Shown piece by piece: positions 3,126 through 45,142 of a DNA stretch of 64,000 bases. The notes under the pieces were generated by a model, which ran no database searches, was not told the DNA's origin, and saw nothing but the letters and a program-made list of their open reading frames with translations. The position numbers and the translations under genes are program-made. Origin of the DNA: Candidatus Poribacteria bacterium (lineage in GTDB: Bacteria > Poribacteria > WGA-4E > JAJDTR01); assembly GCA_965222225.1 (NCBI GenBank), contig CBDCTK010000002.1, positions 672,001 through 736,000 of the forward strand. Direction: 5' to 3'. The stretch's first letter is position 1, and each line of letters opens with the position of its first letter.

Positions 3126-3160
3126 AATCTCTATCGCCCTCGTTGTTCACTCAGTTGATC
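3126..3160 (+). repeat. 35-nt GATC-bounded structured module, copy upstream of rex
   Basis: AATCTCTATCGCCCTCGTTGTTCACTCAGTTGATC matches the consensus GATCTCTATCGC-NN-TC-NN-TATYC-NN-TC-NN-TTGATC; followed by REP-like CCTAC. Confidence 0.8.
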
Positions 3161-3238
3161 CCTACAATCAGGTGTCCTTGGCTTCTCACTTGTTTTTCTT
3201 GCGGATTGTGTACGGATTCGTTATAATGTAATCCATTC

Positions 3239-3913
3239 TTGAGGTTTCTGCGGTACGTCCAGGTGCAAGCACTCCGGTTAACCAATAATCCCGATGCGGT
3301 CTCTGAAGGCACAGTCACCCGTCTCTCCTTATATTCACGACTCCTCACGGTATTGGAGGCAGAAGGTTTAACCGTTATCTCTTCAAAAGAGCTGTCGGAC
3401 CGAATGCAGTTTACCGCGACCCAAATTCGGAGAGACCTCGCTTGTTTCGGCCAATTCGGCAAACGTGGAATCGGTTATCAAATCTCCGACCTGAAACGTG
3501 CAATCAATAAGATTCTAGGTGTCCATCTTCGCCGGAAGGTTGTTCTCGTCGGGGTCGGAAATTTGGGCAGTGCATTACTCGGTTATCGTGTGTTGTGCGA
3601 CCACAATTTTGAAATCGTTGCGGCGTTTGATAACGACCCGCAGAAATGGGCTCAGGAAATTAATACTGTCCTGATTCAAAAGCCTGAACAACTTCCGGAA
3701 ACCGTGCGGTCACAACAGATAGAAATTGGAATCATCGCGGTTCCTGTCGAGGGTGCACACGAAGCATTGAATCTACTTGTTTCATCCGGTATTCGCGCCA
3801 TACTCAATTTCGCCCCTGCTCAACTTGCTACGCCTCGAAATGTGCAACTGCGAAACGTTGATTTGTCCATAGAGCTTGAGGGGCTTTCCTATTTTCTAGA
3901 ACAAGATAGCTAG
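3239..3913 (+). CDS. rex: Redox-sensing transcriptional repressor Rex (start uncertain)
   Basis: 'TVTRLSLYSRLL', 'QIRRDLACFGQFGKRGIGY', Rossmann 'VGVGNLG', 'ILNFAP'. Confidence 0.93.
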   Translation: MRFLRYVQVQALRLTNNPDAVSEGTVTRLSLYSRLLTVLEAEGLTVISSKELSDRMQFTATQIRRDLACFGQFGKRGIGYQISDLKRAINKILGVHLRRKVVLVGVGNLGSALLGYRVLCDHNFEIVAAFDNDPQKWAQEINTVLIQKPEQLPETVRSQQIEIGIIAVPVEGAHEALNLLVSSGIRAILNFAPAQLATPRNVQLRNVDLSIELEGLSYFLEQDS

Positions 3914-3998
3914 GCATATTGTGCGTGGGAAGCTATGTCCTTAGTTTCAGGACGACCGAGCTGCCGGGTATCGAGCGTTCGATGATGTAGGTTTCAAA

Positions 3999-4032
3999 CA
4001 GATAGTTAATCCGCGCAGATAGTTAATCCGCG
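3999..4032 (+). repeat. Perfect 17-bp tandem duplication just before the hemB RBS
   Basis: CAGATAGTTAATCCGCG x2, followed by CCTAGGAG and ATG at 4046. Confidence 0.9.
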
Positions 4033-4045
4033 CCTAGGAGTGGAC

Positions 4046-5029
4046 ATGAGTCATTTTCCCATTTCTCGCCCCAGACGGCTCCGCGCCGATGAAAACCTGC
4101 GCCGACTTACTCGGGAAACGGCGATTTCGACGGACGACTTGATTTATCCTATGTTCGTCGTTCACGGACACGATGTTGCCATCGAAATTTCATCCATGCC
4201 CGGGTGCTATCAATATTCGGTGGATCGCCTTGTTACCGCCGCCAAAGAGTTAGTGATGCTCGGCATACCGGGGACAATTCTATTTGGCATTCCCGATTTC
4301 AAAGACGCCCTCGGATCGGAAGCCTATGCGGACGATGGAATCATACAGCAGGCGATCAGGGCTCTCAAGAATGCAGTTCCGGAGTTGCTTGTTATTACCG
4401 ATGTATGTCTGTGCGAGTATACAGATCATGGACATTGCGGTGTCATTCAGGACAGGGACGTACTAAACGATCGAACATTGGAGTTGCTCGCCAAGGAAAG
4501 CCTATCTCATGCGCGTGCAGGCGCGGATGTCATTGCGCCTTCCGACATGATGGATGGTCGTGTCGGCACAATTCGAGCTGCCTTGGACGAAAACGGATAC
4601 GAAAGTATTCCCATCTTGGCATACTCTGCAAAATACGCCTCCGCTTTCTACGGACCGTTTCGGGAAGCAGCGGAATCGGCGCCGCAATTTGGTGACCGCC
4701 GCTCGTATCAGATGGATCCACCCAACGCCGAGGAAGCCTTGCGCGAAGTAGCGTTGGATATTGAGGAAGGAGCCGACATCGTTATGGTCAAACCGGCGCT
4801 CTCCTATCTAGACGTTATCTGCCGTGTGAAGGATAGGTTTAAGATGCCGGTTGCGGCGTACAATGTCAGCGGCGAATATGCGATGATTAAAGCGGCTGCC
4901 CAACAGGGATGGATTGACGAGAAACGCGTCGCGCTTGAAGTGCTCACGAGCATTAAGCGCGCAGGCGCGGATATGATTCTAACATACTTCGCCAAATCGG
5001 TTGCAGAATGGCTCAGGAATGATAATTAA
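4046..5029 (+). CDS. hemB: Porphobilinogen synthase (Zn-type ALA dehydratase)
   Basis: '[14 protein letters not shown]', '[10 protein letters not shown]', 'MVKPAL', '[14 protein letters not shown]'. Confidence 0.97.
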
Positions 5030-5071
5030 CCCGGTATTACGGAAACAGTTCCATAGTACCTACCAGATTAG

Positions 5072-7790: not shown

Positions 7791-7902
7791 AGCGCCAAGC
7801 CTAATTCGTAATAACAGAGACTGAAAACTTCTTGTTTCTTGTGTCGTTTTATTTTTGTTGAATTTTCTTACTCGTCGGACCTTACCTGCCGCGTGTCATG
7901 CC

Positions 7903-17649: not shown

Positions 17650-17684
17650 CATCAAACGACCGAATAGCGAGTGTGATGGAGATT
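17650..17684 (-). repeat. 35-nt structured module, reverse orientation
   Basis: Reverse complement reads AATCTCCATCACACTCGCTATTCGGTCGTTTGATG. Confidence 0.7.
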
Positions 17685-19354: not shown

Positions 19355-19572
19355 CTAAGACCTGTATGAATAATAGGAGTGAAGGGAATTCGCGGTCATT
19401 TGAGTTCCTATACACCTGTGGGAGTTCTATCGTGCTCCTTATTCACTCGTTTAATCCTCACTGGGGCTTGTGATTTTCGTGCAAAGAGAAGAAGGCAAAT
19501 CGGGGATTTAACGGTCGAAAACCGGTTTCAAGGTAAAATAGTGTTACTTAAAATGGATTTTCAAACAAGCGC
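19355..19572. mobile_element. Degenerate MITE (CCTGTTTGAA...TTCAAACAGG family) containing a 35-nt module at 19422-19456
   Basis: Left end CTAAGACCTGTATGAATAA, right end TTTTCAAACAAGC; internal similarity to the copy at 20269-20549. Confidence 0.6.
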
Positions 19573-19582
19573 GAAAGTGAGT

Positions 19583-20268: not shown

Positions 20269-20549
20269 GAACGTCTGTTTGAAAAAGATGGAAAAGCCTT
20301 TCTTGAAATGTACCTGTGGGATCTCTATCGCCTTGGCTATCCACTCAGTTGATCCCGCGCTGGGGCTTAGGTATGGAGGATTTCGGCGGTTCTATACACC
20401 ATCATGGATCTCTATCGCAGTCGCTATTCGCTCCTTTGATCCCACTCCGGGGCTTGCAAAGGCGATCGAAGGGATTTTATATTGATTTGATGGCCAAAAT
20501 CGGTTTCAAGGCAATAATTTTACTCGATATGAGTTTTCAAACAGGTTCT
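20269..20549. mobile_element. MITE copy carrying two 35-nt modules (20320-20354, 20407-20441)
   Basis: Ends GAACGTCTGTTTGAAAA and TTTTCAAACAGGTTC. Confidence 0.7.
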
Positions 20550-26773: not shown

Positions 26774-26980
26774 TCCTATTCAATTTCGACAATGTTTTTC
26801 GCAACATAGGGAGTTTTGCCACACCCCAAAGAAGGATTGAGACCTGTATCGCACTCGCTCGAACTCGCATTAAATTACCGCAATCCATTAGACAGCAAAT
26901 GACAAGATTGAAGTAATGAATCCCCACGAAACGTGGGCAGATTGAAGCACCTGAAGTAATTGGAAATACACCTCGTATGG

Positions 26981-27043
26981 GGCTCTCTATGGGTCTCGAT
27001 CGCGCCCACTATCCAGTCGCTTTATCTATTCGCTCAGTTGATC
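26981..27043 (+). repeat. Stack of 5'-partial, full and 3'-partial 35-nt modules
   Basis: GGCTCTCTAT, then GGTCTCGATCGCGCCCACTATCCAGTCGCTTTATC (26992-27026), then TATTCGCTCAGTTGATC. Confidence 0.7.
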
Positions 27044-27464: not shown

Positions 27465-30400
27465 TCAATCACTGCCCAAGCCCAAGCCCATGCGGTATTT
27501 GATGTCGTAATTGATGATGAAATCTAATTCTTCGTCGGTGAATCCGTAGTGATTGGCGAGCACACGGTCAATTTGATCGAGGGTTGATTTGGAGTGCGAA
27601 TTCTGGTACGTGAAGGTATACGATGAACCCCTTGTTTTACTCTCGATTCGGTACTGAATAGCGTTTCCCAATAATTCCGTCTGAAGGCGCTCCGCTAAAT
27701 AAATCAAATCTCTCTCTAGAGGTTTGTTTTCCGGATAGTTGAACTGAAAGGAAAAAATCATGTAATCTTTCAAATTGAACAAATCGTAGCTGGTAAGATA
27801 ATACCACCAAAAGAGACTTGAATTTAATGTTGCCATGAACACTCTAGCATCATAGGGATTGGCAAAGTACGCTATCTTGTTGCTTAATGACTCTGTTTGG
27901 AATTTAGAATTAAGAAAAGTCCACCAATAGCCACCTCCGGCTGTTCGATAAGCAACAAAGTTATTATTGGCCTGACTTATTGGCAACAGATGCATCCCTA
28001 TTTCCTTATGATCCCTGTATTTTTCCAGAATAGAGTTTTCGATGTTATTTCCAACTTTGAAAATACGTTGCTTAAATTGTGGGGTTAAATGATATTTCAG
28101 ATTATTGAAGAGTATCTCTCGCGCCTCTGTGTACCACCTTATGACGGAGGTAGTATGAATGTTTGCTTTCTGGATCTTACTGTTATTGATGTGAAAAATG
28201 GATAATCTTTGTAAAACTCCGTGAAATAATTGCGCAGGACGTTGGTGAAAATTCGATATATGCAACGTGGGGTATTTTTTCAAATGTTCTTGGAATTCCC
28301 GCATACTTCGATTGGAAAAGGCACTAATGGGAACAATCATGCTACACATACCTGCCGATTTAAGCAATTTCAAGCTTCTTTCAGCGATGAGTGTATATAA
28401 ATTGCCACAACTTTCTGTTTCATAACTAGTGATTCTGTATTCTTTTCGTACCTTGCTGTATTTCACATACGGCGGATTACCAATAATCACGTCAAAGCCG
28501 CCGTTTTTGAGAATGGCGTAAAATTCAGTGAACCAATGGAAAGGCTTGTGTGAAGATAGCCACTCCTGATAGTCGCCTTCTTTTTTGGGGTGTACCTTGT
28601 ATTCTTCAGCAAGGTAGCGGTTGAGTTCCTCTGCTAATGCCGTGAGTTTTTCCTGTAAATTCTGTTTGTCCGTAGGTGTTACGCGACCGCCGTGTTTAGT
28701 CTGTTGTTCCTGAAATTCCTTGTATAATATCTCTACATCCTCGGCCTTTTCTTCGATTTCGTTCATTACGTTATCGAAGTCTATTTTGTTTTCGGTCACG
28801 GCCCTATTCACATCGTCATAGGTTGCATATCCGACGAGTGTGTTTCCCGCTTGGATGTTAAAGTCGATGTCAGGGAGCGGTTCAATATTGTGGACGTCAT
28901 CGACTTGTGCGACCATTTTGAGGAAGAGGCGCAGCTTGCAGATTTCGATTGCCTCCTCCATGATGTCCACACCGTAGAGATTGTTGATGATGATAGACTT
29001 GAGGATAAAGTATTTGCGGTTTGGGTGTTGCTCGACGCGATGAAGGATTTCGCGGAATTCAGCAAATTTCTTGGGATGTGGTTTTTTTTCCGAAAACTGT
29101 AATTCGTCAACGAAGGCACCCATGCGGTCGAGGCAAGCTTCGTAGAGGGGTTCAAGGATGTTGAGGGCGGCGAACAGGAAGGCGCCGGAGCCACAGGTCG
29201 GATCGAGAATTGTCACGTTTGTGATGGCTTTCCAGAAGGCACGCAGCAGGTCTGGACCTTCACAGTTTTCTATGATGTCTTGGGCAAACTGGCGAAGGTT
29301 CAAGTTATATGTGATGAGGTCATTCACCTCGTGAATTTCGCCTTTGGACAGTTTCCGGTGTATTTCATGGTATCGCTCTCGGCGCGCCACTACCTCGCGC
29401 CATATCTCCGTCGGCAGGGCATATTCGGAAGGGGCAAGGGTGTTCCATTGAGTGCGTTTCGACACGTTTTTAACTCCGGCGTCGATTTCTGGCGGCAGTT
29501 CGAGTTCCGTTCCGTGTTTGACGGCGTCGTAGATGTAGCGGTCGGGATCCTCAACGAGTAGTTGCCATACGGTGGGGGAGGTATCGCGAGCGGGAAGGGA
29601 GTCTCTATCGCCCTCGTTATCCGCTCGGTTGATCGCTCCTACGGGAGGAACGAAGGCGATTCTGCAGTTCATTCGCGCGGACTCCAGAAGGAACGGAATT
29701 ATGGTGTTTTTGCCGATGTATTCGGTGATGTCCTCTTTGGTGTAGTAGGCGCCCATCTGCTTTTGGTTGATGTATTTTTCAAAGATGAAGCCGAGGACAT
29801 CGGGGTTGATTTCGTTATCGTTGCGCAGGGGACGGTCGTCGAGGTGCCATTGGAAGCGCTCAAAGAACGTGAAAAGCCGTTCAAAGGCGGCGTCGGGAAT
29901 CTGAATCGATTCCCCGGATGCGCCTCTATCTGGTGTTTTTGGAAGATGCCGCCGTTGAGGTAGGGTACGTCCCCAAGCAGACGAGACATTTTTCTTGAGC
30001 GTTCGTTCTTTAGTTTGGCAAATCCTTCAAAGAAGAGCGGGCAGAGGAAGGCTTTGTAGTATTGGTCTATACCATTTTGTTGACTGCGCTGTAGGTTGTT
30101 GCGCAGGTAATACGGGTCGTTATTCAGGAAGCGTTTCTTCTGGATGAAGTAGATGAACATCAGGCGGTTGAGAATTACGGACACGTACCAGCGTTGCAAC
30201 CCTTCATCGGGAATCCCGTTCAGAAACCTGAGAAATTCGTCGTGTTCCGTTTTGAAATAGTCGTAAAAGCGCCTGGTTACCCTTTCAACGTCAAAGGCGG
30301 CGCGGACGCGGCTTGTAACATCTACTAGCGTTATTTCCTCTTCTTCCGCAAGGCTGAATGCAATGGACAGTAGTATTTGGATTAATGCCTCACCTGTCTG

Positions 30401-33700: not shown

Positions 33701-34160
33701 TGGGATTGATTGCGTCGGAACGGTAAATCAGGTAGAGTTTTGCGTGGAGCGGATGGCTCAGGAAAAGTTTGACTCTAACCTTTTCGTCTCGAAGCTGATG
33801 GGCGAGTTGGCGCAAGCCATCTTCGTCTTCCCGCGTGGGGTAGCCGATGGTTAGCTGTTCGCGAAACTTCTCGGCTAAGTCCCGTTTGAGACGCAACGCG
33901 GTCTGGTTGTCGATGCCATCGTCGTGTTTGCCGATGCGCATGGCTAGACGCAGTTCTTCTTCGGGCAACCGGTGCATTCCGACTAGCAGGCGGCAGCATT
34001 CGGCTTCGCCGCCGCGCCAAGCTTCGATCTGGGGAGCGATTGCCTTCCAGCCACGGAGATTGAGATACCCGACGCAGAAGTCGGCGCGATCGGCGAGTTT
34101 GAGGGTTTCCTTTAGCGCGGGAAGAAGTTGCTGATCTATGTTGTCGAATATTCGAGGCAT
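30756..34160 (-). CDS. PLD-nuclease (NgoFVII-like) / SNF2-type helicase fusion
   Basis: PLD 'LHAKLY...GSSNLT', Walker A 'DVVGLGKT', 'IDESHNLRN', 'LSATP', 'SEGQNLQ', 'QRAGRVDRIGQ'; stop overlaps the MTase start. Confidence 0.9.
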   Translation of the reverse strand: MPRIFDNIDQQLLPALKETLKLADRADFCVGYLNLRGWKAIAPQIEAWRGGEAECCRLLVGMHRLPEEELRLAMRIGKHDDGIDNQTALRLKRDLAEKFREQLTIGYPTREDEDGLRQLAHQLRDEKVRVKLFLSHPLHAKLYLIYRSDAINPIVGYLGSSNLTLAGLSKQGELNIDVLDEDACQKLEAWFEDRWTERWCIDISKELAQIIEESWAREERIPPYHIYIKMAYHLSREARAGLNEFRIPRIFEGKLFEFQTAAVKIAAHHVNKRGGVMIGDVVGLGKTLMGTALARILEDDYGLETLIICPKNLVEMWEEYRQDYGLRGIVLSLSRVTDKLPDLRRYRLVMIDESHNLRNREGQRYRAIQEYIQQNESKVILLSATPYNKNYVDLSNQLRLFVEEDRDLGIRPDRYFKSLGGETEFIRKHQSGPRTLPAFEQSEYIDDWRELMRLFLVRRTRSFISDNYAETDPESGRRFLTFPDGSRSYFPVRTPKTVKFTIDDQNPNDQYAQLYSEPVVDIIDNLKLPRYGLANYISESPPKPPTSAETKQLEDLSRAGKRLIGFCRSNLFKRLESSGAAFIQSVERHVLRNHVFLYALENDEPLPIGPQDAEMLDARLHDEDVDAPNFIANPFDADDTATEAAAAQLSLRSPDDFRARAAEVYYLYTMRYHAKFKWIRTNLFADALSDDLASDADRLIEVLQSYGDWDAAADEKLNALENLLTQTHSDEKVLVFTQFADTVRYLNAELSARGVSRIEQVTGDSPNPTALVHRFSPVSNNRRARIASSDELRVLVSTDILSEGQNLQDCAVVVNYDLPWAIIRLVQRAGRVDRIGQEAEQILCYSFLPAEGVEHLIFLRSRVHARLLQNAEVVGTDEAFFEDDDESVIVDLYNERSGLLDDPLDDDVDLASYAYQIWKNAITQDPSLKGEIEKLPDVVYSTKPHLPTVAAPEGVLIYMRTGDGIDALAWMDRDRTSVTESQLAILRGAACGPNTEALSPLPEHHQLVQRGAEMMIAEASSVGGALGRPSGARFRTYERLKAYADEVRDTLFDIPELRRSIDQIYRFPLRQAAVDALNRQLRSGIDDRMLAELVITLRDEDRLCIVEGERETREPQIICSMGLAVTGAENSNEH

Positions 34161-34345
34161 AGGGCGGTGGGCAGTGGTTAGTGGATGTTAAGTGCGGCAC
34201 TCCGAGTACTGAATCTCGCCCTGGAGTATGCAATGCACCGCGATTGACGGGTTTGATAAAGAGTTCTAGATGCGTCACTCCAGCGGAACAGTTCGTGTCC
34301 GCGTGTGGGATTATTCTGAAGATTGCCTAACGATGGGGCGGTGTA

Positions 34346-35764
34346 TCAGGGCAAGGTTCCCTCATCGTCAATTGACTGAAGTTCAGAATTGCCGTTGGTA
34401 AGACCGAGCCGCACGGAGGCTTCGTCAGGCGACAGTTCCTCGACTGTTTGTAATTGGCGTTCCATTGCCCGCGTGCGAGTTCGTGTCTGATCAATGGTGT
34501 TGGAGGCTGTATTGAGTTGCTGTTTCAGTTTCGCCATAACGTCGCCAAACTTGCCGAACTCTGTCTTTACAGCGGCGAGGATTTCCCAGACCTCGCTTGA
34601 GCGCTTCTGAATTGCGAGGGTTCTGAATCCGATTCGGAGGCCGCTCAAAATAGCGGCAAGCGTTGTAGGTCCGGCAACGACAATTCGGTGCTGATGAAGC
34701 AGATGCGCGGAACTTCCCGGCGCTCGCAGCACCTCGGCGTAGAGTCCTTCAGTGGGGAGGAACATGATAGCAAAATCTGTGGTGTTGGGTGGCGCAATGT
34801 ACTTATCGCAGATATTCTTGGCTTGTCGCTCTACGGCAGCGAGAAAGGTTGCGACCACTCTATCCACTTCGTCTTTGTCAGCCGCCTCCGCGGCCTCAAT
34901 CAACTTTTCGTAATCCTCAAGGGGAAACGAGGAATCGATTGGCAGCCAGACGCAGGAATTGGGCTCATTGTCATTTCCAGGCAGCCTTACGGCATACTCG
35001 ACAAGGTGGTGCGAGCCAGGATCAGGCTGTACGTTGGCGCTGTATTGGTCTGGCGCAAGGATTTCTTCAAGGAGCGCGCCGAGCTGAACTTCGCCCCATG
35101 TGCCTCTAGACTTTACATTAGTGAGGACGCGTTTGAGATCGCCTACCCCGGTAGCGAGTTGCTGCATTTCTCCGAGGCCGCGATGGACTTCTTCGAGACG
35201 CTTGCTTACCTGATTGAACGATTCGCCCAGTCGTTTTTCGAGGGTTGATTGGAGTTTTTCGTCAACGGTTTCACGCATCTGGTCAAGCTTGTCCTCGTTG
35301 CTTGTTTGTATAGCTTGCAGACGCATATCGACGGCACTCCTGACATGTTCCATGCTTGTTTCGTTGGAGTGCATCAAGTCGGTAATTGCTTTGGCACCGC
35401 TGCTAAGCTGGTTAGCGACAGCATCACGTATCTTGTCGAGCCTAGCCTCCGTACTTTGCTGAAGGTCTTGGAATCTCATCCCCACGGCTGATCTCATTCC
35501 TTCAGATTGGGTGGTGAGAAGTTTGCCAAATTCCCCTATGTTTGCTGTCATGGTATTGGTGGTTGACTGATGCGCATTCTGTATATCTTCTCGAATCTCG
35601 CGTTGAGAATTGGATAGTTCCTTGCTGAACGAATGCAAGCCATCTTGACCCGCCGTGCCCTCTAATTTGTTGCGGGAAAACACGATTTGCTTCAACACTA
35701 GGAGCATTAACACAAAATTCAGCGCCAACAGGGCTGCGACACACCATAGTACTATTTCAATCAT
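34346..35764 (-). CDS. rmuC: RmuC-family protein, paralogue 1 (DSKFP motif reads DSSFP)
   Basis: N-terminal TM plus coiled coil, 'LTNVKSRGTWGEVQL', 'TTDFAIMFLPTEGLYAE', 'GPTTLAAIL'. Confidence 0.92.
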   Translation of the reverse strand: MIEIVLWCVAALLALNFVLMLLVLKQIVFSRNKLEGTAGQDGLHSFSKELSNSQREIREDIQNAHQSTTNTMTANIGEFGKLLTTQSEGMRSAVGMRFQDLQQSTEARLDKIRDAVANQLSSGAKAITDLMHSNETSMEHVRSAVDMRLQAIQTSNEDKLDQMRETVDEKLQSTLEKRLGESFNQVSKRLEEVHRGLGEMQQLATGVGDLKRVLTNVKSRGTWGEVQLGALLEEILAPDQYSANVQPDPGSHHLVEYAVRLPGNDNEPNSCVWLPIDSSFPLEDYEKLIEAAEAADKDEVDRVVATFLAAVERQAKNICDKYIAPPNTTDFAIMFLPTEGLYAEVLRAPGSSAHLLHQHRIVVAGPTTLAAILSGLRIGFRTLAIQKRSSEVWEILAAVKTEFGKFGDVMAKLKQQLNTASNTIDQTRTRTRAMERQLQTVEELSPDEASVRLGLTNGNSELQSIDDEGTLP

Positions 35765-35809
35765 TTCTCATTGTCTCCGATCATGGTTTAAGAGTTTGTA
35801 TGAGTAATA

Positions 35810-35826
35810 TAGGACTCACGCAGTTG
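35810..35826 (+). repeat. Solo IS701-like terminal IR relic upstream of rmuC paralogue 1
   Basis: TAGGACTCACGCAGTTG, 15/17 identical to the IR of the IS at 25730; no partner end found. Confidence 0.5.
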
Positions 35827-36302
35827 CCCCTGAAAGCCTTATATTTCAGCGGTTTATCGCCGGGACGCAGATTCCTAGCAGGAGGGGAAATCGGCGATTT
35901 GATGATCGTCGATCTCGATAAATCGGACAACTACAAGCTGGGTAGCGTCACAATTTAGTGTAATCGGCGCCAAATGTACAAAATTACGGGCGAAATCGAC
36001 GGCACATCGAAAAATGTCATGCTCCTGTCATGCACTGAAAACTCGGTGGTAAACTGGCATTGCTCCGATACACCCCATAAAGTTGTATGATAGGATTTTC
36101 CTTGAGTGGCGGGTGATTTCGCCACTCCACACTTCAGTGCAGACCTACCACCGGCTGAGGTTCGTAAGAACTAATGGTTAACGATTCCTTCATGGTCATT
36201 TAAGTGAGGAACGAAACAACAATGGTGGTCCCCTATTAAAGAAAGAGTCGTCGTGGGCTAGTGTAAATCTGTGAGAATCTTCGCTATAGTCTGATGGTTG
36301 AA

Positions 36303-36390
36303 TGGGATTTCTATGAGAATTCTATCGCGCGGGATTTGCTGCCGCACTCGCTATAAGGGATCTCGATCGCACTCACAATAGGATTTACAA
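36303..36390 (+). repeat. Stack of 5'-partial 35-nt modules
   Basis: GGGATTTCTAT / GAATTCTATCGCGC / GGGATTTGCTGCCGCACTCGCTAT / GGGATCTCGATCGCACTCACAAT. Confidence 0.55.
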
Positions 36391-36425
36391 TCACCCTTAC
36401 TGTCCGTTCATGACTGTCTAAACAA

Positions 36426-36455
36426 TGGGGGTAAGTTCACTGGGGGTAAGTTCAC
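36426..36455 (+). repeat. Perfect 15-bp tandem duplication
   Basis: TGGGGGTAAGTTCAC x2. Confidence 0.85.
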
Positions 36456-36684
36456 TTAATCCCATTTGATCGGCTTCAAGGCATAGGAAAGAACGCAATT
36501 ACGAAGGGTATCGTTACAGAAACGAGACGACCATGATGGGTTCGTCTCGCGCATCCTGTAGCAGGGGTTACATCATCAGATTGCGCTGATGATCGGAACT
36601 TCCCGACGCTCGCAGCACGTCGGCGTGGGTGCTTCAGTAGACATCTTTGGCTCTTCAGAGTTAAGTGTGGAAAATGAAATTAGC

Positions 36685-37010
36685 TTAGGGCCTGTTTGAA
36701 TAATCGGTAGCAAAGCCATTTTGGTCAAATGAAGGAAGTTTTCTCATGTTTTTATTCTTGCCCGCTACGTACCTGTAGGATCTCTATCGCAGTCGCTTTT
36801 CGCTCCCTAGATCCCAATTCACTCACTTGATCTCCGCTGGAGTGCAGGACAAACTAACCCTATTTTTGGATCGGTACAGAGGGCAAGTGTGCAACGGTCA
36901 TTGGTCTCGCTTGGCGGTATTTCGTTGAGTGGAACGGTTTGAATAATGAAAGGCAGTCCATTTTTGGTGAGTTGAGTTTGGAGGTGGTGGGCAGTGCCCA
37001 CCCTACAAAT
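36685..37010. mobile_element. MITE copy lacking its right end; module at 36779-36813 plus a 3'-partial copy; ends in a REP-like hairpin
   Basis: TTA-GGGCCTGTTTGAATAATCGGTAGCAAAGCCATTTT matches the 44975 copy; GGTGGGCAGTGCCCACCCTAC near 36986-37006. Confidence 0.65.
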
Positions 37011-37013
37011 GCT

Positions 37014-38324
37014 TTAGTCATCTTCTTGATTTAGCTCAATCGCGGAGATGCCGTCGGTAAGTCCGAGCCGCGCGGTTGCTTCGTCAGGCGGTAGCTGCTC
37101 CACGGTTTGCAATTGACGCTCCATTGCCCGTGTGCGGGTTTGGGTTTGATCAATTGTGTTGGAGGCTGTATTGAGTTGCTTTTTCAATTTCGCCATAACG
37201 TCACCAAATTTGCCGAACTCTGTCTTTACGGCGGCTAGAACTTCCCAGACTTCACTTGACCGCTTCTCGATTGCAAGCGTTCGGAATCCCATGCGAAGGC
37301 TACTCAAAATAGCTGCGAGGGTGGTCGGTCCGGCGACTACAATTCGGTAGAGATGCATGAGATGAACCACTTCGCCCGGCGATCGCAATACTTCTGCGTA
37401 AAGCCCTTCCGTTGGGAGGAACATAACCGCGAAATCTGTCGTTTTTGGGGGAGCGATGTACTTTTCGCTTATGGTCTTGGCTTCATTGTGCACGGTCGCC
37501 AAGAAGGTCCCGGTCGCTTTTTCTATTTCGTCTTTGTCTGCCGCCTCGGCTGCCTGCACGAGCCTTTCGTAATCTGCAAGCGGGAACTTGGAATCGATTG
37601 GCAGCCATACGCAGGAGTTGGGGTCATCGTTATTTCCGGGAAGGCGGATGGCATACTCGACTTCCTCACGAGAATCCTCGTTTACCTGTACATTCAAGCT
37701 GTACTGGTCCGGCGTGAGAATCTCCTCAAGGAGCGCGCCAAGCTGGACTTCTCCCCATGTGCCCCGCGTTTTGACGTTGGTCAATACTCGTTTGAGATCG
37801 CCGACGCCGATTGCAAGTTCCTGCATTTCGCCAAGACCGCGTTGCACCTCTTCAAGACGCTTGCTTACCTGATTGAAGGATTCGCCAAGTCGTTTTTCGA
37901 GTGTTGATTGGAGTTTTTCATCAACCGTTTTGCGCATTTGGTCAAGTTTGTCCTCATTGCTGACCTGCATGGCTTGAAGTCGCTCATCGACCGTGATTCT
38001 GACTTTTTCCATGCGCATCTCGTTGGCTTGGGTCAGGGCGTCTATTGCCTCTGTTCCACTCTTAATTTGGCGCGCCTGCGTTTCTCCGAGTTCTCCGATA
38101 GTCTTTACTAGTGTGTTCGCCGTGGTTACTTGACTGGCTCTAATCTCATTCCTGATTTCTCGGTCCGACCTAACTACGTCGTCACGAAGGGAGCGTAATT
38201 CGTCTTGTACCGCCTGGTCCGCTTTTTCCTTTCGGAGGTCCGTCATTTGTTTGAGCGCTAGAATGATGAGCGCAAGGTTCAACAGCGACAATGCTCCCAC
38301 GCACCATATTCCTATTTGAATCAT
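37014..38324 (-). CDS. rmuC: RmuC-family protein, paralogue 2 (intact PIDSKFP)
   Basis: 'LTNVKTRGTWGEVQL', 'WLPIDSKFP', 'TTDFAVMFLPTEGLYAE'. Confidence 0.93.
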   Translation of the reverse strand: MIQIGIWCVGALSLLNLALIILALKQMTDLRKEKADQAVQDELRSLRDDVVRSDREIRNEIRASQVTTANTLVKTIGELGETQARQIKSGTEAIDALTQANEMRMEKVRITVDERLQAMQVSNEDKLDQMRKTVDEKLQSTLEKRLGESFNQVSKRLEEVQRGLGEMQELAIGVGDLKRVLTNVKTRGTWGEVQLGALLEEILTPDQYSLNVQVNEDSREEVEYAIRLPGNNDDPNSCVWLPIDSKFPLADYERLVQAAEAADKDEIEKATGTFLATVHNEAKTISEKYIAPPKTTDFAVMFLPTEGLYAEVLRSPGEVVHLMHLYRIVVAGPTTLAAILSSLRMGFRTLAIEKRSSEVWEVLAAVKTEFGKFGDVMAKLKKQLNTASNTIDQTQTRTRAMERQLQTVEQLPPDEATARLGLTDGISAIELNQEDD

Positions 38325-38467
38325 TTCTGTTTACCTCCGATTATGATTTGGCGAAAATAGGACTAACATAGTTTGGTTAGTAATCGTGCAATTCACTGCG
38401 CTTGTTTTGTAGCAGCGAACTTTGCTCGTAATTCTAAAACTTTGCCAAGAGGTCGCGATCGGGAGAA

Positions 38468-38502
38468 GATCTCTATCGCACTCGTTATTCACTCGCTTGA
38501 TC
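38468..38502 (+). repeat. 35-nt module within a REP-like element
   Basis: GATCTCTATCGCACTCGTTATTCACTCGCTTGATC between TCGCGATCGGGAGAA and TCCTACAG. Confidence 0.85.
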
Positions 38503-38665
38503 TCCTACAGTAGGACTGTCGTAACGCACTTCGCGTCGGATGGTTGTTCACCTGTCTCTACGTCGCATGTCATGTTGTTACACGCAGAAACGGGCAATAA
38601 ACTGCCCTACCACATGCGAGCAGGTGAGCGCGGCGGGTCCCCTCAAGCGGCCTGCAAGTGGCAAC

Positions 38666-39427
38666 TTACATCATCAGGTCTCCGCCGTTAATATCAATTG
38701 AGGCACCAGTGATGTATTGCGAATCGGTGACGAGAAATAAGACCAGTTGCGCAACTTCCTCCGGGGTTCCAAGCCTAGAGATTGGGAAACTCTCTTCGTA
38801 GCCCTTGATTCGCTCAGGGGTACACTCGGCGCGTACCATCTCCGTGTCAATCAGTCCCGGGCAGACGGCGTTAACCGTAATTCCGAATGGAGCCACCTCC
38901 TTCGCCATCGCCCTCGTAATACCAAGCACTCCGGCTTTCGCGGCGGTGTAGTGTATACCGCCGAGCGTGCTTACACTTCTTCCTGCGGATGAGGACATAT
39001 TGACAATTCTGCCGTATCCTTTCGCTTTCATGGTTTGAAGAACCGCCTTCGAGCAGAGGAATGTGCCATTCAGGTTAACGTCAAGCACTTGATCCCACTC
39101 CGCCTTGGTGACATAATCGATCCGAGTTGGGTATAGGATTCCGGCGTTGTTGACAAGTATGCTCACGGTACCGTAGTTGTCAATCGCATGCTCCACCATA
39201 GAGGCGACTTCATATTCCTTGGTAACGTCGGTTTTTACGGTCATCGCTCTGCCCCCGGAGCTGTTGATTTCCTCGGCGATGCGAGCTGCCTTACCCTCGA
39301 TGATGTCGCTAACGATAACCACGGCGCCTTCATGAGCAAGGCGATTCGCGGTTGCGGCGCCCATTCCTTGGCCTGCTCCGGTTACAATGGCTACTTGATT
39401 GGAAAGTTTTCCTTCCGAGTGTTCCAT
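38666..39427 (-). CDS. SDR family oxidoreductase (FabG-like)
   Basis: 'TGAGQGMG', 'NNAG', 'YTAAK', 'NAVCPG'. Confidence 0.93.
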   Translation of the reverse strand: MEHSEGKLSNQVAIVTGAGQGMGAATANRLAHEGAVVIVSDIIEGKAARIAEEINSSGGRAMTVKTDVTKEYEVASMVEHAIDNYGTVSILVNNAGILYPTRIDYVTKAEWDQVLDVNLNGTFLCSKAVLQTMKAKGYGRIVNMSSSAGRSVSTLGGIHYTAAKAGVLGITRAMAKEVAPFGITVNAVCPGLIDTEMVRAECTPERIKGYEESFPISRLGTPEEVAQLVLFLVTDSQYITGASIDINGGDLMM

Positions 39428-39577
39428 ATTCTAGACTCCTGAATGATTACAGTGTTGCTAGGGAATATTGACATTTGACAATCTGAACCCATCTCCTCTC
39501 CGAGAGTCTTCGCCCTGATGCACGTCGAGGCGATTTGGTATAATCGCAAATAACCGGCGTGTTACGAGACCCTATAT

Positions 39578-39694
39578 CCTACGGGCGAGGATCAATTGAG
39601 CGAACAGCGAATGCGATAGGGATCTTACCTCGCCCTATGGGTTGGGGGGATCCCTATCGCCTTCCTTATCCAGTCAGTTGATTCCAACCCCTAC
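39578..39694. repeat. Two REP-like hairpins, each with a 35-nt module in the loop (39590-39624 minus, 39649-39683 plus)
   Basis: GGGCGAG[module rc]..CTCGCCC and GGGTTGG..[module]CCAACCCCTAC. Confidence 0.8.
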
Positions 39695-39900
39695 GATATA
39701 CAATGCGTCCTCAATCGCGGCAGGGACGGAATTTCCTCGCCCGTACTCCGATGAAATGTCAACAGAGCCTAGAGACTGGTAATTCATTTTAGCAAAAATC
39801 GGGCAGGCATTCAATGTGAAAACAGGAGTCTTTTTTGTGATGATCCTGAGCGAATCGTGCTATAATAGACCGAATTTTTCGGAAGGGAGGAGGACTGGCA

Positions 39901-41457
39901 GTGAAATACGACACAATCATCGTTGGCTCCGGCTCGGCGGGGGGTATACTCGCGGCGCGGCTAACCGAGGATGCGCACCGATCAGTGCTGTTGTTAGAGG
40001 CAGGTCCTGATTTTCCCACGCTCGAACAGCTTCCCGATGAAATTCGGTTTGCATACGGTCATGACCCCAATCTCTGGGCGCGTGCGTTTGGACATGAAAC
40101 CAAATTCGGTTGGGGTTACACCGCAAAAGCCACTGCCCAGCACCCCAATATGCTCGTTCCACGAGGTAAAATAATTGGCGGATCGAGTGCGGTGAATGCG
40201 CAGATCTTTCTTCGGGGAGTTCCCGAAGATTATGATAGCTGGGCTGAAATGGGCAACGATAAGTGGAGTTACCGGGAGTTGATTCCTTACTTTCGCAAAA
40301 ACGAAGCAGATCCCGATTTTCATGATGATTTCCACGGCGCCGATGGCCCTATCCGTGTTCGTCGGTTTCGAGAAGGGGGATTTCTGCCTGAACAGCGGGC
40401 ATTCTACGACGCCTGTCGTGCTTTGGGCTACCCGGATTGTCCCGATAACAACGCTCCCGACTCAACGGGAGTTGGCGCGGTGGCGCTAAATAATGTTGAC
40501 GGCATCCGTTGGAGCACGGCAATAGGATATCTCAATCCGGCGCGCCATCGGGTGAACCTGACGATAAAAGGTAATTGCACCGTGCACCGCGTGCTTTTTG
40601 AAGGGCATCGAGCAGGCGGAGTGTCCGTCGAGAGCGGCGGGGAGATGTTCCGCGTCTATGGCGACGAGATTATCGTGTGTGCGGGAGCAATCGGCTCACC
40701 GCACCTTCTTATGCTCTCGGGGGTTGGGCCCGCCGATCACCTCCGGGAGATGCGTATACCCGTGGTGCACGACTTGCCGGGGGTCGGACAGAACCTTAGA
40801 GACCATCCACAAGTTACCATCGCGCTGAAAGCGAAAGAGGCGTATCTCACCAATGGGACCGAGCCTCGCCTGCAGATGGGGCTTCGTTACACCGCGCGCG
40901 GATCCGCCCTCCGCAACGATATGTTTATTCTGCCCGGCTCGTACGCTACCGAAGAGGGCTATTACCGCATATCAAGGTCGAAGCCGTTTGGATTTTATAT
41001 TACCGCATGCATCTATTTGGCAGTAGGCGCAGGGGAAATCACGCTCGCCTCTTCCGACCCTCACGAACAACCTGTTCTTGATTATAACTATCTGGCGGAA
41101 TCCTTTGACCGTGATCGGCTACGAGAAGCGGTTCGCATGATGGTCGAATTCGCGGAGCATGAAGCATACGAGGAGATTGTCGCCGAATGTGTAGCGCCAA
41201 CGGACGACTCTCTGATGACCGACGCCGCGCTTGACGAATGGATGATGCGTGAAGTGTGCACCAGCCATCACAGTTCGTCAACCTGCAAGATGGGGCAAGA
41301 ATTAGATCCGATGGCGGTTGTCGATCAGTACGGAAAAGTTCACGGGATTGAGGGGTTGCGAGTCGCTGACGCTTCCATCATGCCCGATTGTATTCGTGCC
41401 AACACCAATGTGACAACCATGGTCATTGGGGAACGGGTGGCTGATTTCATTCGGTAG
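39901..41457 (+). CDS. GMC family oxidoreductase (choline dehydrogenase/MftG-like)
   Basis: 'IVGSGSAG', 'PRGKIIGGSSAVN', 'GVGQNLRDHP', 'LRVADASIMP...NTN'. Confidence 0.92.
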   Translation: MKYDTIIVGSGSAGGILAARLTEDAHRSVLLLEAGPDFPTLEQLPDEIRFAYGHDPNLWARAFGHETKFGWGYTAKATAQHPNMLVPRGKIIGGSSAVNAQIFLRGVPEDYDSWAEMGNDKWSYRELIPYFRKNEADPDFHDDFHGADGPIRVRRFREGGFLPEQRAFYDACRALGYPDCPDNNAPDSTGVGAVALNNVDGIRWSTAIGYLNPARHRVNLTIKGNCTVHRVLFEGHRAGGVSVESGGEMFRVYGDEIIVCAGAIGSPHLLMLSGVGPADHLREMRIPVVHDLPGVGQNLRDHPQVTIALKAKEAYLTNGTEPRLQMGLRYTARGSALRNDMFILPGSYATEEGYYRISRSKPFGFYITACIYLAVGAGEITLASSDPHEQPVLDYNYLAESFDRDRLREAVRMMVEFAEHEAYEEIVAECVAPTDDSLMTDAALDEWMMREVCTSHHSSSTCKMGQELDPMAVVDQYGKVHGIEGLRVADASIMPDCIRANTNVTTMVIGERVADFIR

Positions 41458-41574
41458 ACGGTGCTGAATTTCTACACAAGCGGGGATTGACGTATCGGTT
41501 GAAGGTAATACCATTTCCCCATATATCCAGTGAGTTAATAGGGTCAATCAAATCTTACCAATGCGGGGCAAGGG

Positions 41575-41645
41575 AATTTCTACCGTACTCGCTATCCGCT
41601 CGCTTGAGGGGATTTCTATCGCACTCGCTATCCGCTCGCTTGATC
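41575..41645 (+). repeat. Two tandem 35-nt modules
   Basis: AATTTCTACCGTACTCGCTATCCGCTCGCTTGAGG and GATTTCTATCGCACTCGCTATCCGCTCGCTTGATC. Confidence 0.85.
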
Positions 41646-41754
41646 CCCGCCTGCCGGGTTTGGTTGGAGAGAAATGGTCGGTATCGGTTTGTTCATTATA
41701 GTATGATTGAAAAACATTGTACGCAATATTATCGGAACGAAACGGTATAAGTTA

Positions 41755-41985
41755 GAGCCTGTTTGAATAGTCGGCAGCCAAGCTATTTTTAGCCATTTGC
41801 AGACAAGTTTTTTCATGTTTGTGTAACTGCCCGTTAAATACCTGTCAGGATTTCTATCGCACTCACTATTCGCTCGCTTGATCCCACTCTGGGGCTTTTA
41901 GAGGCTGGTGCGCAGGGGATCTCTATCGCAGTCATTATTCATTCCTTTGATCGCACCCTACGAACTGTACTTTTCAAACAGGCTC
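41755..41985. mobile_element. Complete MITE with TTA target duplication and two modules (41849-41883, 41918-41952)
   Basis: TTA|GAGCCTGTTTGAA ... TTCAAACAGGCTC|TTA. Confidence 0.85.
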
Positions 41986-42147
41986 TTAGTATAAGTTAAT
42001 GGAAAACAAATGGCCGTTTGAATTTGCGGTAACTTACGGTAAAATGGGCATGTCGAGGCTGGACTTCGCGCGTGGGCCGGCATTGTGGGTGACGGGTTGA
42101 GATTCCTTTCATAGTCGAAAAAACTGTCCATTGGGGAGGAAATGTAG

Positions 42148-42870
42148 ATGCGTTTGACAGAGCAACAGCGGAACAGATACAAAGAATCGGGCTATCTTCT
42201 CGTAACGGGACTGTTCGATATCAAGACCGCAAAACAGATGATTGACCACTATATGGAAATGCGTGCCGAGGGACCAAAACCCGGGGATTCCGGGGGAACG
42301 CCGGATAAACCCGATGATCCGACTCACAAATATCCTCGAATGATAAGCATGCATGAATGGGATGGGGTTACCGGAAACTGGGCACAACAGGCGGATATGT
42401 TAGCTATCGTGAGCCAACTGATTGACGACACCCCGGTCTTGCGGCAGACGATGCTTTATTTCAAACCCCCAGGAGGGCGAGGTCAGGGGCTTCATCAAGA
42501 CCAACAATACATTCCGACGGAGCCGCTTATTGGTGTGTGGATAGCCCTTGATGAATCAGACGAGGCAGTAGGACAGATGATTGTTGTTCCCGGCTCGCAC
42601 AAATTCGGACATCTGCCGGTGCAAGCGGCTGACACGTCTGTTTCGTTTACGCCCGTTCAATCGATGATACCGGCGGAGGCGACGGAGGTGGGTGTCAACA
42701 TGAAACCGGGGGATGCACTATTTTTTGATGGTAAAACGCTCCACGGTTCGTACCTCAACACGACCAAAGAACGCTGGCGTCGCAGTTTTATCTGTCATTA
42801 TATCGGCGAACACGCGGAGAATTTTGAGCCGGAGCAGGGGACACTTGTGTCGCATTTGCGCTCTTCGTAG
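42148..42870 (+). CDS. Phytanoyl-CoA dioxygenase (PhyH) family protein
   Basis: 'YFKPPGGRGQGLHQD', 'WIALD', 'VPGSHK', 'LHGSYLN...RRS'. Confidence 0.9.
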   Translation: MRLTEQQRNRYKESGYLLVTGLFDIKTAKQMIDHYMEMRAEGPKPGDSGGTPDKPDDPTHKYPRMISMHEWDGVTGNWAQQADMLAIVSQLIDDTPVLRQTMLYFKPPGGRGQGLHQDQQYIPTEPLIGVWIALDESDEAVGQMIVVPGSHKFGHLPVQAADTSVSFTPVQSMIPAEATEVGVNMKPGDALFFDGKTLHGSYLNTTKERWRRSFICHYIGEHAENFEPEQGTLVSHLRSS

Positions 42871-43049
42871 ATGCTCTTGAATTGTGACGTGCCTTTTGTC
42901 TCTATGATGTCTTCAAACCATGGCAAATTTGCGTGGGGAGCCTTCTATTTTGTAACGGATATCACCGTAGTTGGTCTTGTGAGCAGTAAACGCCATTTGA
43001 TTGGGATAGCCGTGATTGATTCCTGATGTCATGGTATGGCACGGGGAGG

Positions 43050-43167
43050 GATTTCTATCGTGCTGGGATCGCATTCGCTATTCGCTCATTCGATCTATTC
43101 GGTCGCTTGATCGCACGAGAGTCACTATCAAGACTTGCTATCGCCCTCCTTATTCAGTCGGTTGATC
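43050..43167 (+). repeat. Nested stack of partial and full 35-nt modules
   Basis: GATTTCTATCGTGC / GATCGCATTCGCTATTCGCTCATTCGATC / TATTCGGTCGCTTGATC / ACTTGCTATCGCCCTCCTTATTCAGTCGGTTGATC (43133-43167). Confidence 0.75.
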
Positions 43168-43272
43168 CTGAGCCATAAACGCTTGCTTTTCGGTTAACCA
43201 TCAGCTATACTTGAGCCATTGACTGGAAATAGCACTGTTAGACCTTATTGAGGTTCGGTAAGGGGAGTTTCT

Positions 43273-44223
43273 ATGCGTGCAATCGTTACCAGACTGAAGC
43301 CTGATGGAACTCGCGAGAAGGTGTTAGTGGACGATTGGCCAAATCCCGGGGCTCCCGCTGAAAACGAAGTCAAGACTCGTACACTGTATTCGGGAATCAC
43401 TAACGGAACGGAACGCAACGATCTCCTGAGCGGCAATTACGCCAGTCCAGATGATGAATTGCCCGCACGTGGTGGTTACCAAAATGTGGGCGAAGTGATC
43501 GAGGTGGGTTCCGGTGTGCAGGGCTTGGAGACTAGCGACGTACTCTACATGAGTCGAAGCCATCTTGAGTTCTGTCTCGAACCTGAAGATCGATTGCACA
43601 TCAAGCTGCCCACCGGGATCAAGCCGAAAGAGGCTGCACTCTTCGGTGTCGCCGGTGTCGCCATGCGATGCTGTCGAAACGCTGATCTGCGCATAGGCAC
43701 TCGGATGCTAGTGGTTGGTGCAGGAATCGTAGGTCAATTGGTCGCCCAGATTGCGGCGTCTACCGGTGCGTGCGTGACACTGTGTGATGTTGATGAGCAT
43801 CGTCTAAAGATTGCCGAGACGATCGGTGCTGCTGACGAGATCATCAATGTTGGCGGTGACGGTTGGGACAAATACATCCCTGATTTTGGATTCGATATTG
43901 TACTTGATGCGGCAGGTGTTTTGGGCATGGAGGACAAGCTGATTACCGCCGCAAAGAAACATGGGACCATTATGTTCATCGCAGGACGATTTAGAGTAGA
44001 ATACATCTTTAACCGGGGGCAAGGACGCGAAATCACGATTAAGCAGAACAGCCACTTTGACAACTCTGACCTTTATCACATGTGCCGCTTTGTGTCGAAG
44101 GGCATGATTCAGATTGCACCCTTAATCCAAGATGTGGCGCCGGTTGCCGAAGCGAAAAGGATTTATGACACGCTCCGGGATGAGCCACAGAAGTTGCTTG
44201 GGACCGTTTTTGATTGGAGGTAA
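43273..44223 (+). CDS. MDR (zinc-binding dehydrogenase-like) oxidoreductase
   Basis: 'YSGITNGTE', 'GYQNVGEVIEVG', Rossmann 'VVGAGIVG'. Confidence 0.85.
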   Translation: MRAIVTRLKPDGTREKVLVDDWPNPGAPAENEVKTRTLYSGITNGTERNDLLSGNYASPDDELPARGGYQNVGEVIEVGSGVQGLETSDVLYMSRSHLEFCLEPEDRLHIKLPTGIKPKEAALFGVAGVAMRCCRNADLRIGTRMLVVGAGIVGQLVAQIAASTGACVTLCDVDEHRLKIAETIGAADEIINVGGDGWDKYIPDFGFDIVLDAAGVLGMEDKLITAAKKHGTIMFIAGRFRVEYIFNRGQGREITIKQNSHFDNSDLYHMCRFVSKGMIQIAPLIQDVAPVAEAKRIYDTLRDEPQKLLGTVFDWR

Positions 44224-44228
44224 ATAGG

Positions 44229-44888
44229 ATGAGAACTGCACCGGTAACTATCGCTGTTGTCACTGGAGGGCATAGCTATGATGTCATCAATTTTCGGCGG
44301 CTTTTCAGCGGCTTAGACGGCATTGACTCTCATGTCCAGCACATGGATGATTTTGCGACCTCTTCAGAGAAGGTTCGGGATTCATACGACGTTGTTGTCT
44401 TCTATCACATGTTGATGGACGGTCCACGCGACGAGGGCTTACCGGGCTACGCCGGGAAACCCAAAGCGGTTTTGGAACATCTCGGCGAAACACAGCAAGG
44501 CGTCTTCGTTCTCCATCATGCACTCCTGGCGTATCCGCGATGGCACGTCTGGGACGAAATAGTGGGGATGGACGACCGCTCTTTTGGCGCCCATGCCGGC
44601 AAATCTCTTCATGTAGAGATTGCCGATGCAAGTCATCCGATTACTCGTGATCTGTCGGACTGGGACATGCTTGATGAGACTTATACGATGGCTGAACCCG
44701 CAGCAGACAACAACGTTCTCCTCACAGTCAAGCACTCGCAAAGCATGGAGGCGATTGCTTGGAATCGGGAGCACAAGAATAGTCGGGTATTCTGTTTTCA
44801 GTCTGGTCATGATAACCAGACCTGGGCAGATGCAGGATTTCAGGAAGTTCTGCGTCGCGGCATTTTGTGGTGTGGAAGAAAGCTTTAG
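44229..44888 (+). CDS. ThuA-like domain protein
   Basis: 'VVTGGHSYD', 'HPITRDLSDWDMLDETY', 'RVFCFQSGHD', 'RGILW'. Confidence 0.8.
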   Translation: MRTAPVTIAVVTGGHSYDVINFRRLFSGLDGIDSHVQHMDDFATSSEKVRDSYDVVVFYHMLMDGPRDEGLPGYAGKPKAVLEHLGETQQGVFVLHHALLAYPRWHVWDEIVGMDDRSFGAHAGKSLHVEIADASHPITRDLSDWDMLDETYTMAEPAADNNVLLTVKHSQSMEAIAWNREHKNSRVFCFQSGHDNQTWADAGFQEVLRRGILWCGRKL

Positions 44889-44974
44889 GTGCTGTCGGTT
44901 GGGCATTCATTAGCGAAGCGCTTACGCACCTAAATCTGAAAAAGAGCAATTCGTTTGGCGTTCATACTCCATCG

Positions 44975-45142
44975 CTAAGAACCTGTTTGAATAATCGGTG
45001 GCAAAGCCATTTTTGGTCATTTGTAGAAAGTTTTTTCATGTTTTCATTGTTGGCTGTTACATACCTGTAGGATCTCTATCGCAGTCGCTATTCGCTCCCT
45101 TGATCGCACCCTACAAACTGTACTTTTCAAACAGGTTCTTAG
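44975..45142. mobile_element. Complete 168-bp MITE with one module (45071-45105)
   Basis: Perfect 17-bp IR CTAAGAACCTGTTTGAA / TTCAAACAGGTTCTTAG. Confidence 0.85.

Follow-up and report, generated by a model that had tools for sequence, protein, structure and literature searches.

Does a 35-nt module that recurs along a 64-kb stretch of a Candidatus Poribacteria genome, and whose variable positions appear to change in pairs, form a structured element, and does it serve the sites where it lies or spread on its own account? The stretch (hereafter the window; contig CBDCTK010000002.1, positions 672,001 to 736,000) covers 64 kb of the forward strand of a genome of 5.70 Mb in two contigs. On the strand that carries TCTATCGC, named here the CT strand, the module of 35–37 nt has the consensus GGRATYT-CTATCGC-NN-TC-NN-TATYC-NN-TC-NN-TTGATC, and the complementary GA strand reads GATCAA-[NN GA NN - GRATA - NN GA NN]-GCGATAGARATCC. 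An original prediction, made from the window alone, described 17 copies as a candidate structured element with covarying NN dinucleotides. Our analysis confirmed that the observation is genuine, namely a strongly covarying, strand-specific hairpin repeat, and showed that this repeat behaves as a miniature mobile element.

All 17 coordinates of that prediction proved to be copies when read directly from the sequence, with 0–6 departures from the consensus; no two are identical, as had been noticed, and 15 of the 17 lie in + orientation. A pattern search allowing ≤3 mismatches to the earlier consensus gave 12 matches in the window vs. 0 in shuffled sequence (100 shuffles, maximum 0), and a looser pattern added an 18th, degenerate copy absent from the earlier list. 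The copies of the window are as follows, each found by both pattern search and direct reading unless another source is given.

3126..3160, + strand: copy with the TCTATCGC form on +, the complement being the folded GA strand
17650..17684, - strand: degenerate copy, 4 departures (direct reading)
19422..19456, + strand: degenerate copy, 4 departures (direct reading)
20320..20354, + strand: copy
20407..20441, + strand: copy, exact consensus
26992..27026, + strand: degenerate copy (4 departures) with the 3′ half of a further copy after it (direct reading)
29600..29634, + strand: copy
36779..36813, + strand: copy
38468..38502, + strand: copy, exact consensus
39590..39624, - strand: copy in opposite orientation, head-to-head with the copy at 39649
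39649..39683, + strand: copy
41575..41609, + strand: unit 1 of a tandem pair (period 36), its ..TTGA joining GGGGAT of unit 2 directly (direct reading)
41611..41645, + strand: unit 2 of the tandem pair
41849..41883, + strand: copy within a composite repeat of ~235 nt (41754–41989)
41918..41952, + strand: copy in the same composite, within a GTAG-type repetitive extragenic palindrome (REP); the commonest exact 35-mer of the genome, with 24 copies (pattern search)
43061..43095, + strand: the 18th copy, degenerate (looser pattern)
43133..43167, + strand: copy with 4 departures at its 5′ end (direct reading)
45071..45105, + strand: copy, exact consensus

Genome-wide, 1,099 copies were counted with a regular expression (≤4 substitutions, N positions free), 603 on the - and 496 on the + strand, and nhmmer gave 1,072 copies at E≤1e-3. 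The module thus makes up ~0.7% of the genome (~1,100 × 37 nt in 5.7 Mb). Its arms are 93–99% conserved and the information content falls steeply beyond GGRATYT-CTATCGC...TTGATC; since the 5′ GG(R) is kept in 129 copies with both flanks unique, it belongs to the element. At each of the eight N positions two or three bases occur at comparable frequency, and the 1,099 copies comprise 277 stem haplotypes and 922 distinct 35-mers. Within the variable dinucleotides, T is avoided at the first base and A at the second, and CG is almost absent as a stem dinucleotide. Consequently, most of the tandem GA pairs are flanked by a 5′ pyrimidine and a 3′ purine on the folded strand.

The proposed base pairing of the NN dinucleotides was borne out. 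In the 17 window copies, the earlier hand counts of Watson–Crick pairs were exact (16/17 at positions 14:28 and 14/17 at 18:24), and the counts for 13:29 and 17:25 were 9/17 and 13/17, respectively. At 13:29, 14:28, 17:25, and 18:24, the window mismatches included 6, 1, 1, and 2 A:C (10 in total) and 1, 0, 0, and 1 G:T (2 in total). Over the 1,099 genome copies, the mutual information of these four pairs was 0.75, 0.93, 1.13, and 0.40 bits, respectively, and no other inter-arm pair ranked as high when all position pairs from -8 to +40 were compared. Watson–Crick pairs accounted for 69, 89, 92, and 82% of the copies, nearly all of the remainder being A:C on the CT strand (24, 4, 3, and 14%), with G:T there at 1.5–2.5%. 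A shuffle test covering 10 species of the window's genus (80 copies, of which 75 are distinct) further supported the covariation, as 93.0% of the cells were paired vs. 65.0 ± 1.8% in shuffles, a value that 0 of 500 shuffles reached, and both sides had changed in 106 cells vs. 20.5. When the partner was slid by 1–3 columns, the paired cells fell to 20–58%.

Based on the dominance of A:C over G:T on the CT strand, which is equivalent to G:U or G:T wobble on the complement, the fold lies on the GA strand, with tandem GA opposite GA, as had also been predicted. All four pairs were standard or wobble on the GA strand in 896 of the 1,099 copies vs. 578 on the CT strand. The hairpin had a mean of -1.8 kcal/mol on the GA strand and +2.0 kcal/mol on the CT strand with RNA parameters, and the GA strand folded lower in 985 of the 1,099 copies; with DNA parameters the means were +1.2 and +2.5 kcal/mol, respectively. 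The hairpin is therefore marginal by itself and probably needs a partner. The wobble asymmetry was equal (A:C 11–12%, G:T 2%) in copies with the CT strand on the G-rich or on the C-rich strand and in copies with GA-sense or CT-sense to the flanking genes, indicating a property of the element rather than a local mutation bias or local use, and it was repeated in 329 copies of a sister species. The predicted fold comprises two 2-bp helices around a tandem G.A/A.G, where the invariant TC/TC between the dinucleotides becomes GA opposite GA, capped by a purine-rich pentaloop and framed by two conserved single-stranded arms.

The element is mostly a resident of repeat mosaics between genes. By a crude open reading frame (ORF) call, 975 of the 1,099 copies (89%) are intergenic, and convergent, divergent, and co-directional spacers carry them at comparable density, with 140 copies in 151 kb, 174 in 223 kb, and 661 in 732 kb, respectively. 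Neighbours less than 400 nt apart are in direct orientation in 282 cases vs. inverted in 90. Only 209 copies possess two unique flanks, and for 460 both flanks are repeated. One such mosaic is the composite at 41754–41989 of the window, which combines a GTAG-type REP with two 35-nt modules and a CCCACTCTGGGGC hairpin; resembling the mosaics of bacterial interspersed mosaic elements (BIMEs), it is found again at several genome sites with 83–88% identity. Three further canonical REP-type families occur genome-wide, the P0001-type REP (76 copies), CTGTAGGAGCGATCTCCAGGTCGCGA (88), and GTGCGCAGTGCGCACCCTACA (166), and each is a frequent host of 35-nt insertions.

To find empty sites, the two flanks of every copy were joined, and the genome was searched for the resulting sequence. 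Paralogous empty sites that match 19–20 of the 20 junction bases were found for 86 copies, 28 of them perfect. The net insert is 34–38 nt (34–36 nt at the perfect junctions) with an overlap of 0–2 nt with the target outside tandem arrays, and no target-site duplication was observed at the 19 perfect junctions outside such arrays, as judged against these paralogous empty sites. In 12 of the 28 perfect-junction rows, GGG...TTGA is inserted directly before TC, the targets including GA^TC in a GTAG-REP as well as the loop TAT^TC and the stem AC^TC of other copies; 7 rows have G(G)AT...TTGAT inserted between G and C, with CTATCG^C of another copy among the targets, and the remaining 9 represent slippage in tandem arrays. 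The left flanks of the insertions vary, and the junctions fall into two registers. Nested and tandem copies were also seen directly, and the insert orientation is fixed within each of four host repeat families (37:0, 20:0, 19:0, and 20:0). The filled and empty paralogous sites, together with the nested and tandem copies, demonstrate that the module itself is the unit of insertion, gained preferentially beside or inside other hairpin repeats, its own copies included.

Among 176 genomes of the phylum, at least 100 copies were found only in the window's genus (10/10 genomes, 730–1,495 copies each) and in one genus of another family (4/4, 228–260); 8 further genomes have 1–21 copies, and 154 of the 176 have none. 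One haplotype dominates the listed copies of the second genus, a low-diversity set that suggests a recent burst. One genome of an otherwise element-free genus (G066) holds 21 copies, all on contigs C72, C83, C91, and C116, and 11 of them lie within ~6 kb of one contig, so that a transferred island or mis-binned contigs are both possible. The copy sets differ between species, as the syntenic block around the window contains 0–11 copies at differing positions in 10 species; counts and positions were compared here, since the spacers of the block are too diverged between species for a comparison of orthologous empty sites. The search for exact matches among the viral contigs of IMG/VR (2.9 million) returned 0. 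Copies are present in contigs of four independent public runs from four studies, and the depth peaks at the copy-bearing bins in four independent runs. Over window positions 28001–46000, contigs from four runs, three of the DNA type and one of RNA, end at copies, with no clean filled or empty allele readable. Contigs of the RNA library reach into copies, although such libraries can contain DNA, and this cover is no proof of transcription.

The orientation of the copies is clearly non-random and locally coherent, with long and local runs in both genomes assayed. In the genome of the window, 68% of the copies have their CT strand on the strand that is locally G-rich (skew over ±50 kb with the elements masked; odds ratio 4.4, p 2.5e-32), the bias flips at every skew switch along the chromosome, and orientation correlates with the gene-corrected skew (rho 0.64, 116 windows). 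Between co-directional genes, the GA strand is sense in 351 copies vs. antisense in 310. Orientation in this genome thus tracks strand composition, not gene direction. In the sister species (60 windows of 20 kb, 329 copies), the agreement with the raw skew was 43%, i.e., in the opposite direction, while with the gene-corrected skew the sign was the same and the effect weak (rho +0.27, p 0.10; smoothed, +0.32, p 0.046). Because of this weakness, a general replication bias is not claimed. Orientation in the sister species was anti-correlated with gene-strand balance (rho -0.54, p 4e-4), the GA strand being sense in 123 and antisense in 69 copies between co-directional genes. The GC skew of the 5.6-Mb contig (C2) of the window's genome changes sign ~10 times instead of twice, which suggests many inversions or assembly joins in the wrong orientation.

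The explanation that we favour, at somewhat better than even chances, treats the module as a REP-like miniature mobile element of 35–37 nt that is non-autonomous and may be mobilised by an HUH transposase. Selection at propagation best accounts for the covariation: only the copies whose GA strand forms the hairpin would yield new ones, and the pairs would not be kept for a role that each copy plays at its own site. Pairing is equally good in all genomic contexts examined. A trans-acting enzyme would recognise the hairpin in its single-stranded state. An HUH Y1 transposase of the IS200 or REP-associated tyrosine transposase (RAYT) type may, by analogy, be the best candidate; these genomes hold several copies of such genes, and in that case the module would be their hyper-abundant parasite.

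Several results weigh against this explanation. The empty sites are paralogues and not true ancestral sites, and since many of the filled sites lie in composites that were themselves amplified, the insertion events are not independent. The two end registers are less precise than known HUH transposition, and the stand-alone hairpin is not predicted to be stable with DNA parameters (+1.2 kcal/mol). In this genome the strand that does not fold, the CT strand, mostly coincides with the G-rich one (taken as leading, i.e., as the lagging-strand template), which would be the reverse of the active strand predicted from IS200/IS605. At the five Y1 loci inspected, no Y1 or RAYT gene is flanked by the module as its own REP, the flanking repeats being of the GTAG-plus-palindrome type or AAGCCCCAGCGGGGCGACAGGTGTATAG. 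An ORF commonly lies between two copies by chance (108 cases), and no arrangement is preferred (25 vs. 21). Finally, none of the four Y1 proteins tested was present in all element-rich genomes and missing from the element-free ones.

The original prediction had suggested that an HUH or REP-associated transposase encoded elsewhere possibly acts on the element. Genes of these types are present; however, a distinct REP accompanies every RAYT or IS200-like gene that was examined, and none of the four Y1 proteins tested matches the distribution of the element. The genome has five Y1_Tnp matches, comprising the IS200-type gene P0001 (65.8 bits), a RAYT gene interrupted by TAG (133.6 bits), two partial RAYT-like genes, and a remnant. 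Relatives of P0001 at 23 loci of the phylum are flanked by a REP of their own, with AAGCCCCAGCGGGGCGACAGGTGTATAG upstream and its complement downstream, and P0001 was rejected as the cognate enzyme on account of this distinct REP; the copies beside P0001 are explained by modules nested in the P0001-type REP in three species, this one included. Likewise, each RAYT clade has its own GTAG-plus-palindrome REP, in families of 76–166 copies here, ~10 times fewer than the module. In the genome groups compared, the element is present in 9/9 genomes of the window's genus (g1) and 4/4 of the second element-rich genus (g4) only. The P0001 type occurs in 9/9 of g1, 2/4 of g4, 7/7 of g6, and 5/10 of g3, the L002 type in 3/9 of g1 and 0/4 of g4, the L004 type in 7/9 of g1, 1/4 of g4, and 3/7 of g6, and the L003 RAYT type in 8/9 of g1, 3/4 of g4, and 6/7 of g6. 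The interrupted RAYT gene (L003 1372–1914, G000:C2:3088808–3089350; NF047646) has one in-frame TAG, and in-frame TAG stops recur in Y1-transposase genes in several species of the order, where decay or programmed read-through is possible.

A more tentative alternative, which we consider possible but distinctly less probable, holds that the 35–37-nt module is the whole mobile unit and ranks among the smallest self-contained mobile DNAs. It would spread by the GA-strand hairpin, with the tandem sheared G.A as an identity mark, by a mechanism other than ordinary RAYT/REPIN or IS200/IS605 transposition, would be a hyperparasite of the resident REP systems, and would have crossed between two sponge-symbiont genera. 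Four features argue, in this alternative, against the ordinary transposition of either kind: the end register is flexible, target duplication is lacking, feet and loops of other hairpin repeats are preferred as sites, and the folded strand is opposite to the expected one.

Compared with these two accounts of the module as mobile DNA, it is unlikely that the module is a structured RNA motif in transcripts, such as a protein-binding or stabilising hairpin of untranslated regions with the GA strand as RNA. The fold on one strand, favourable with RNA but not with DNA parameters, would fit such a role, as would the tandem G.A, a common motif of RNA, the GRAUA loop, which would suit a GNR(N)A-like pentaloop, the sense orientation of the GA strand in 123 of the 192 copies between co-directional genes of the sister species, and the RNA-library contigs reaching into copies, with the reservation that such a library can contain DNA. 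However, the sense split in the genome of the window is nearly even, GA-sense and CT-sense copies pair equally well, and the density is similar in convergent, divergent, and co-directional spacers. The copies nested in each other and in tandem, and the missing Rfam match, also speak against an RNA role. The RNA-motif idea of the original prediction is thus weakly supported, with the sense bias present in the sister species but absent here.

More doubtful still is a DNA motif that serves the host, that is, a polar chromosomal sequence or a protein site for replication or chromosome organisation, spread by recombination. The way in which orientation follows strand composition in this genome, both in the raw and in the gene-corrected skew, and the long local runs in the two genomes would be expected of a polar motif. 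Nevertheless, the bias is far from complete and is weak in the second species, the copy positions are not conserved between species, 154 of the 176 phylum genomes have no match, and the nested insertions and tandem units resemble selfish spread.

A copying route via RNA, by a reverse transcriptase with integration by template switching, appears very improbable. It would account for a 5′ end rich in G and for end registers that vary, as the insert ends vary by 1–2 nt with 0–2 nt common with the target, and copies with unique flanks still keep GG(R) before AT at the 5′ end. Opposed to this, the single reverse-transcriptase match in the genome, the one genome covered by this search, scored 27.5 bits and is an AbiA-type defence reverse transcriptase (254.8 bits to PDLC03741), which also makes the reverse-transcriptase partner named in the original prediction unlikely. 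This protein has 670 aa and is encoded at L268 514–2526 (G000:C2:4499560–4501572). An adaptor, library, or assembly artefact, a concern raised from the outset, has a negligible probability and is ruled out by copy numbers from the hundreds up to 1,495 in each of 13 other genomes, 9 of which are of the window's genus, by the copies in contigs of the four independent runs and studies, and by the diversity and predominantly intergenic position (975/1,099) of the copies.

More than 10,000 natural variants across one genus all report on a single 2+2-bp stem around a tandem G.A, and this set is an unusually clean natural experiment on the needs of a hairpin-recognising enzyme. If the module is a complete mobile unit, it would set the lower size limit for mobile DNA, and it would provide an example of a repeat colonising other repeats. 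In practice, the module is a main reason why contigs of these uncultured symbionts break when assembled from short reads, and its patchy distribution could mark lineage and exchange between symbionts that share a sponge.

Apart from the module, the window contains an insertion sequence of ~1.05 kb at 25730–26790, encoding a 339-aa DDE transposase (DDE_5, DDE_Tnp_1) between inverted ends ATAGGAGTTACGCAG... Its 3′ 773 nt recur elsewhere in the genome in at least 25 near-identical copies, and copies in the sister species have 87–99% identity. It adjoins a 567-aa AAA_13 ORF with a seemingly disrupted C-terminus.

In comparison with described motifs, no Rfam family matched the element, in agreement with the original prediction of a new one: Rfam 15 gave 0 matches at gathering score over the 64-kb window, and a search at E≤10 on the 8 copies in 39400–42100 gave no relevant match, one chance snoRNA row adjoining a copy. 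Literature searches on repeats and RNA motifs of Poribacteria returned no description of the element, and the motif strings matched primers only. A structured motif from the same phylum, the Poribacteria-1 RNA motif, is said to have been described by Weinberg et al. in 2017. The main text of PMC5737381 does not mention the Poribacteria-1 motif, and its supplements may hold it; we infer that the motif was present in the Rfam library searched. Kink-turns and C/D box RNAs differ from the module in that its tandem GA sits in a symmetric 2×2 arrangement between Watson–Crick dinucleotides, with no 3-nt bulge. Regarding miniature inverted-repeat transposable elements (MITEs) of DDE transposons, the module ends are partly GGGATC/GATCCC-like, but its junctions have no target duplication. 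Small dispersed repeats of cyanobacteria (Nostoc), reportedly 21–27 nt long, nested in other repeats, and argued by Elhai et al. in 2008 (Genome Res 18:1484) to be mobile, differ in phylum and in sequence.

The REP and REPIN systems are short extragenic hairpin repeats with an associated RAYT (PMC3116915). Like them, the module is short, extragenic, hairpin-forming, lineage-specific, and present in hundreds to thousands of copies, it clusters in mosaics with other repeats, and the genome carries RAYT and IS200-like genes. Unlike them, it has no GTAG 5′ of the palindrome (CTATCGC or GATCAA stands there, depending on the strand), is not the flanking repeat of any RAYT gene, inverted or otherwise, and is not co-distributed with one RAYT lineage across genomes. 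Its neighbours are mostly direct and form no REPIN doublet, and its stem is only 2+2 bp, hypervariable around the invariant tandem G.A, the conserved part being the single-stranded arms. From the IS200/IS605 elements the module differs in having one hairpin in 35–37 nt, not a left-end plus a right-end hairpin. It may also differ from them in its target, with two registers (before TC in 12 rows and between G and C in 7) in place of a single conserved target tetranucleotide, and in its active strand, since the folded GA strand appears to be opposite to the expected lagging-strand template (68% here and weak in the second species, with the leading strand assumed from skew). It shares with these elements the insertion without target duplication, the hairpin on one strand, the orientation fixed to the target, and the chromosomal strand bias.

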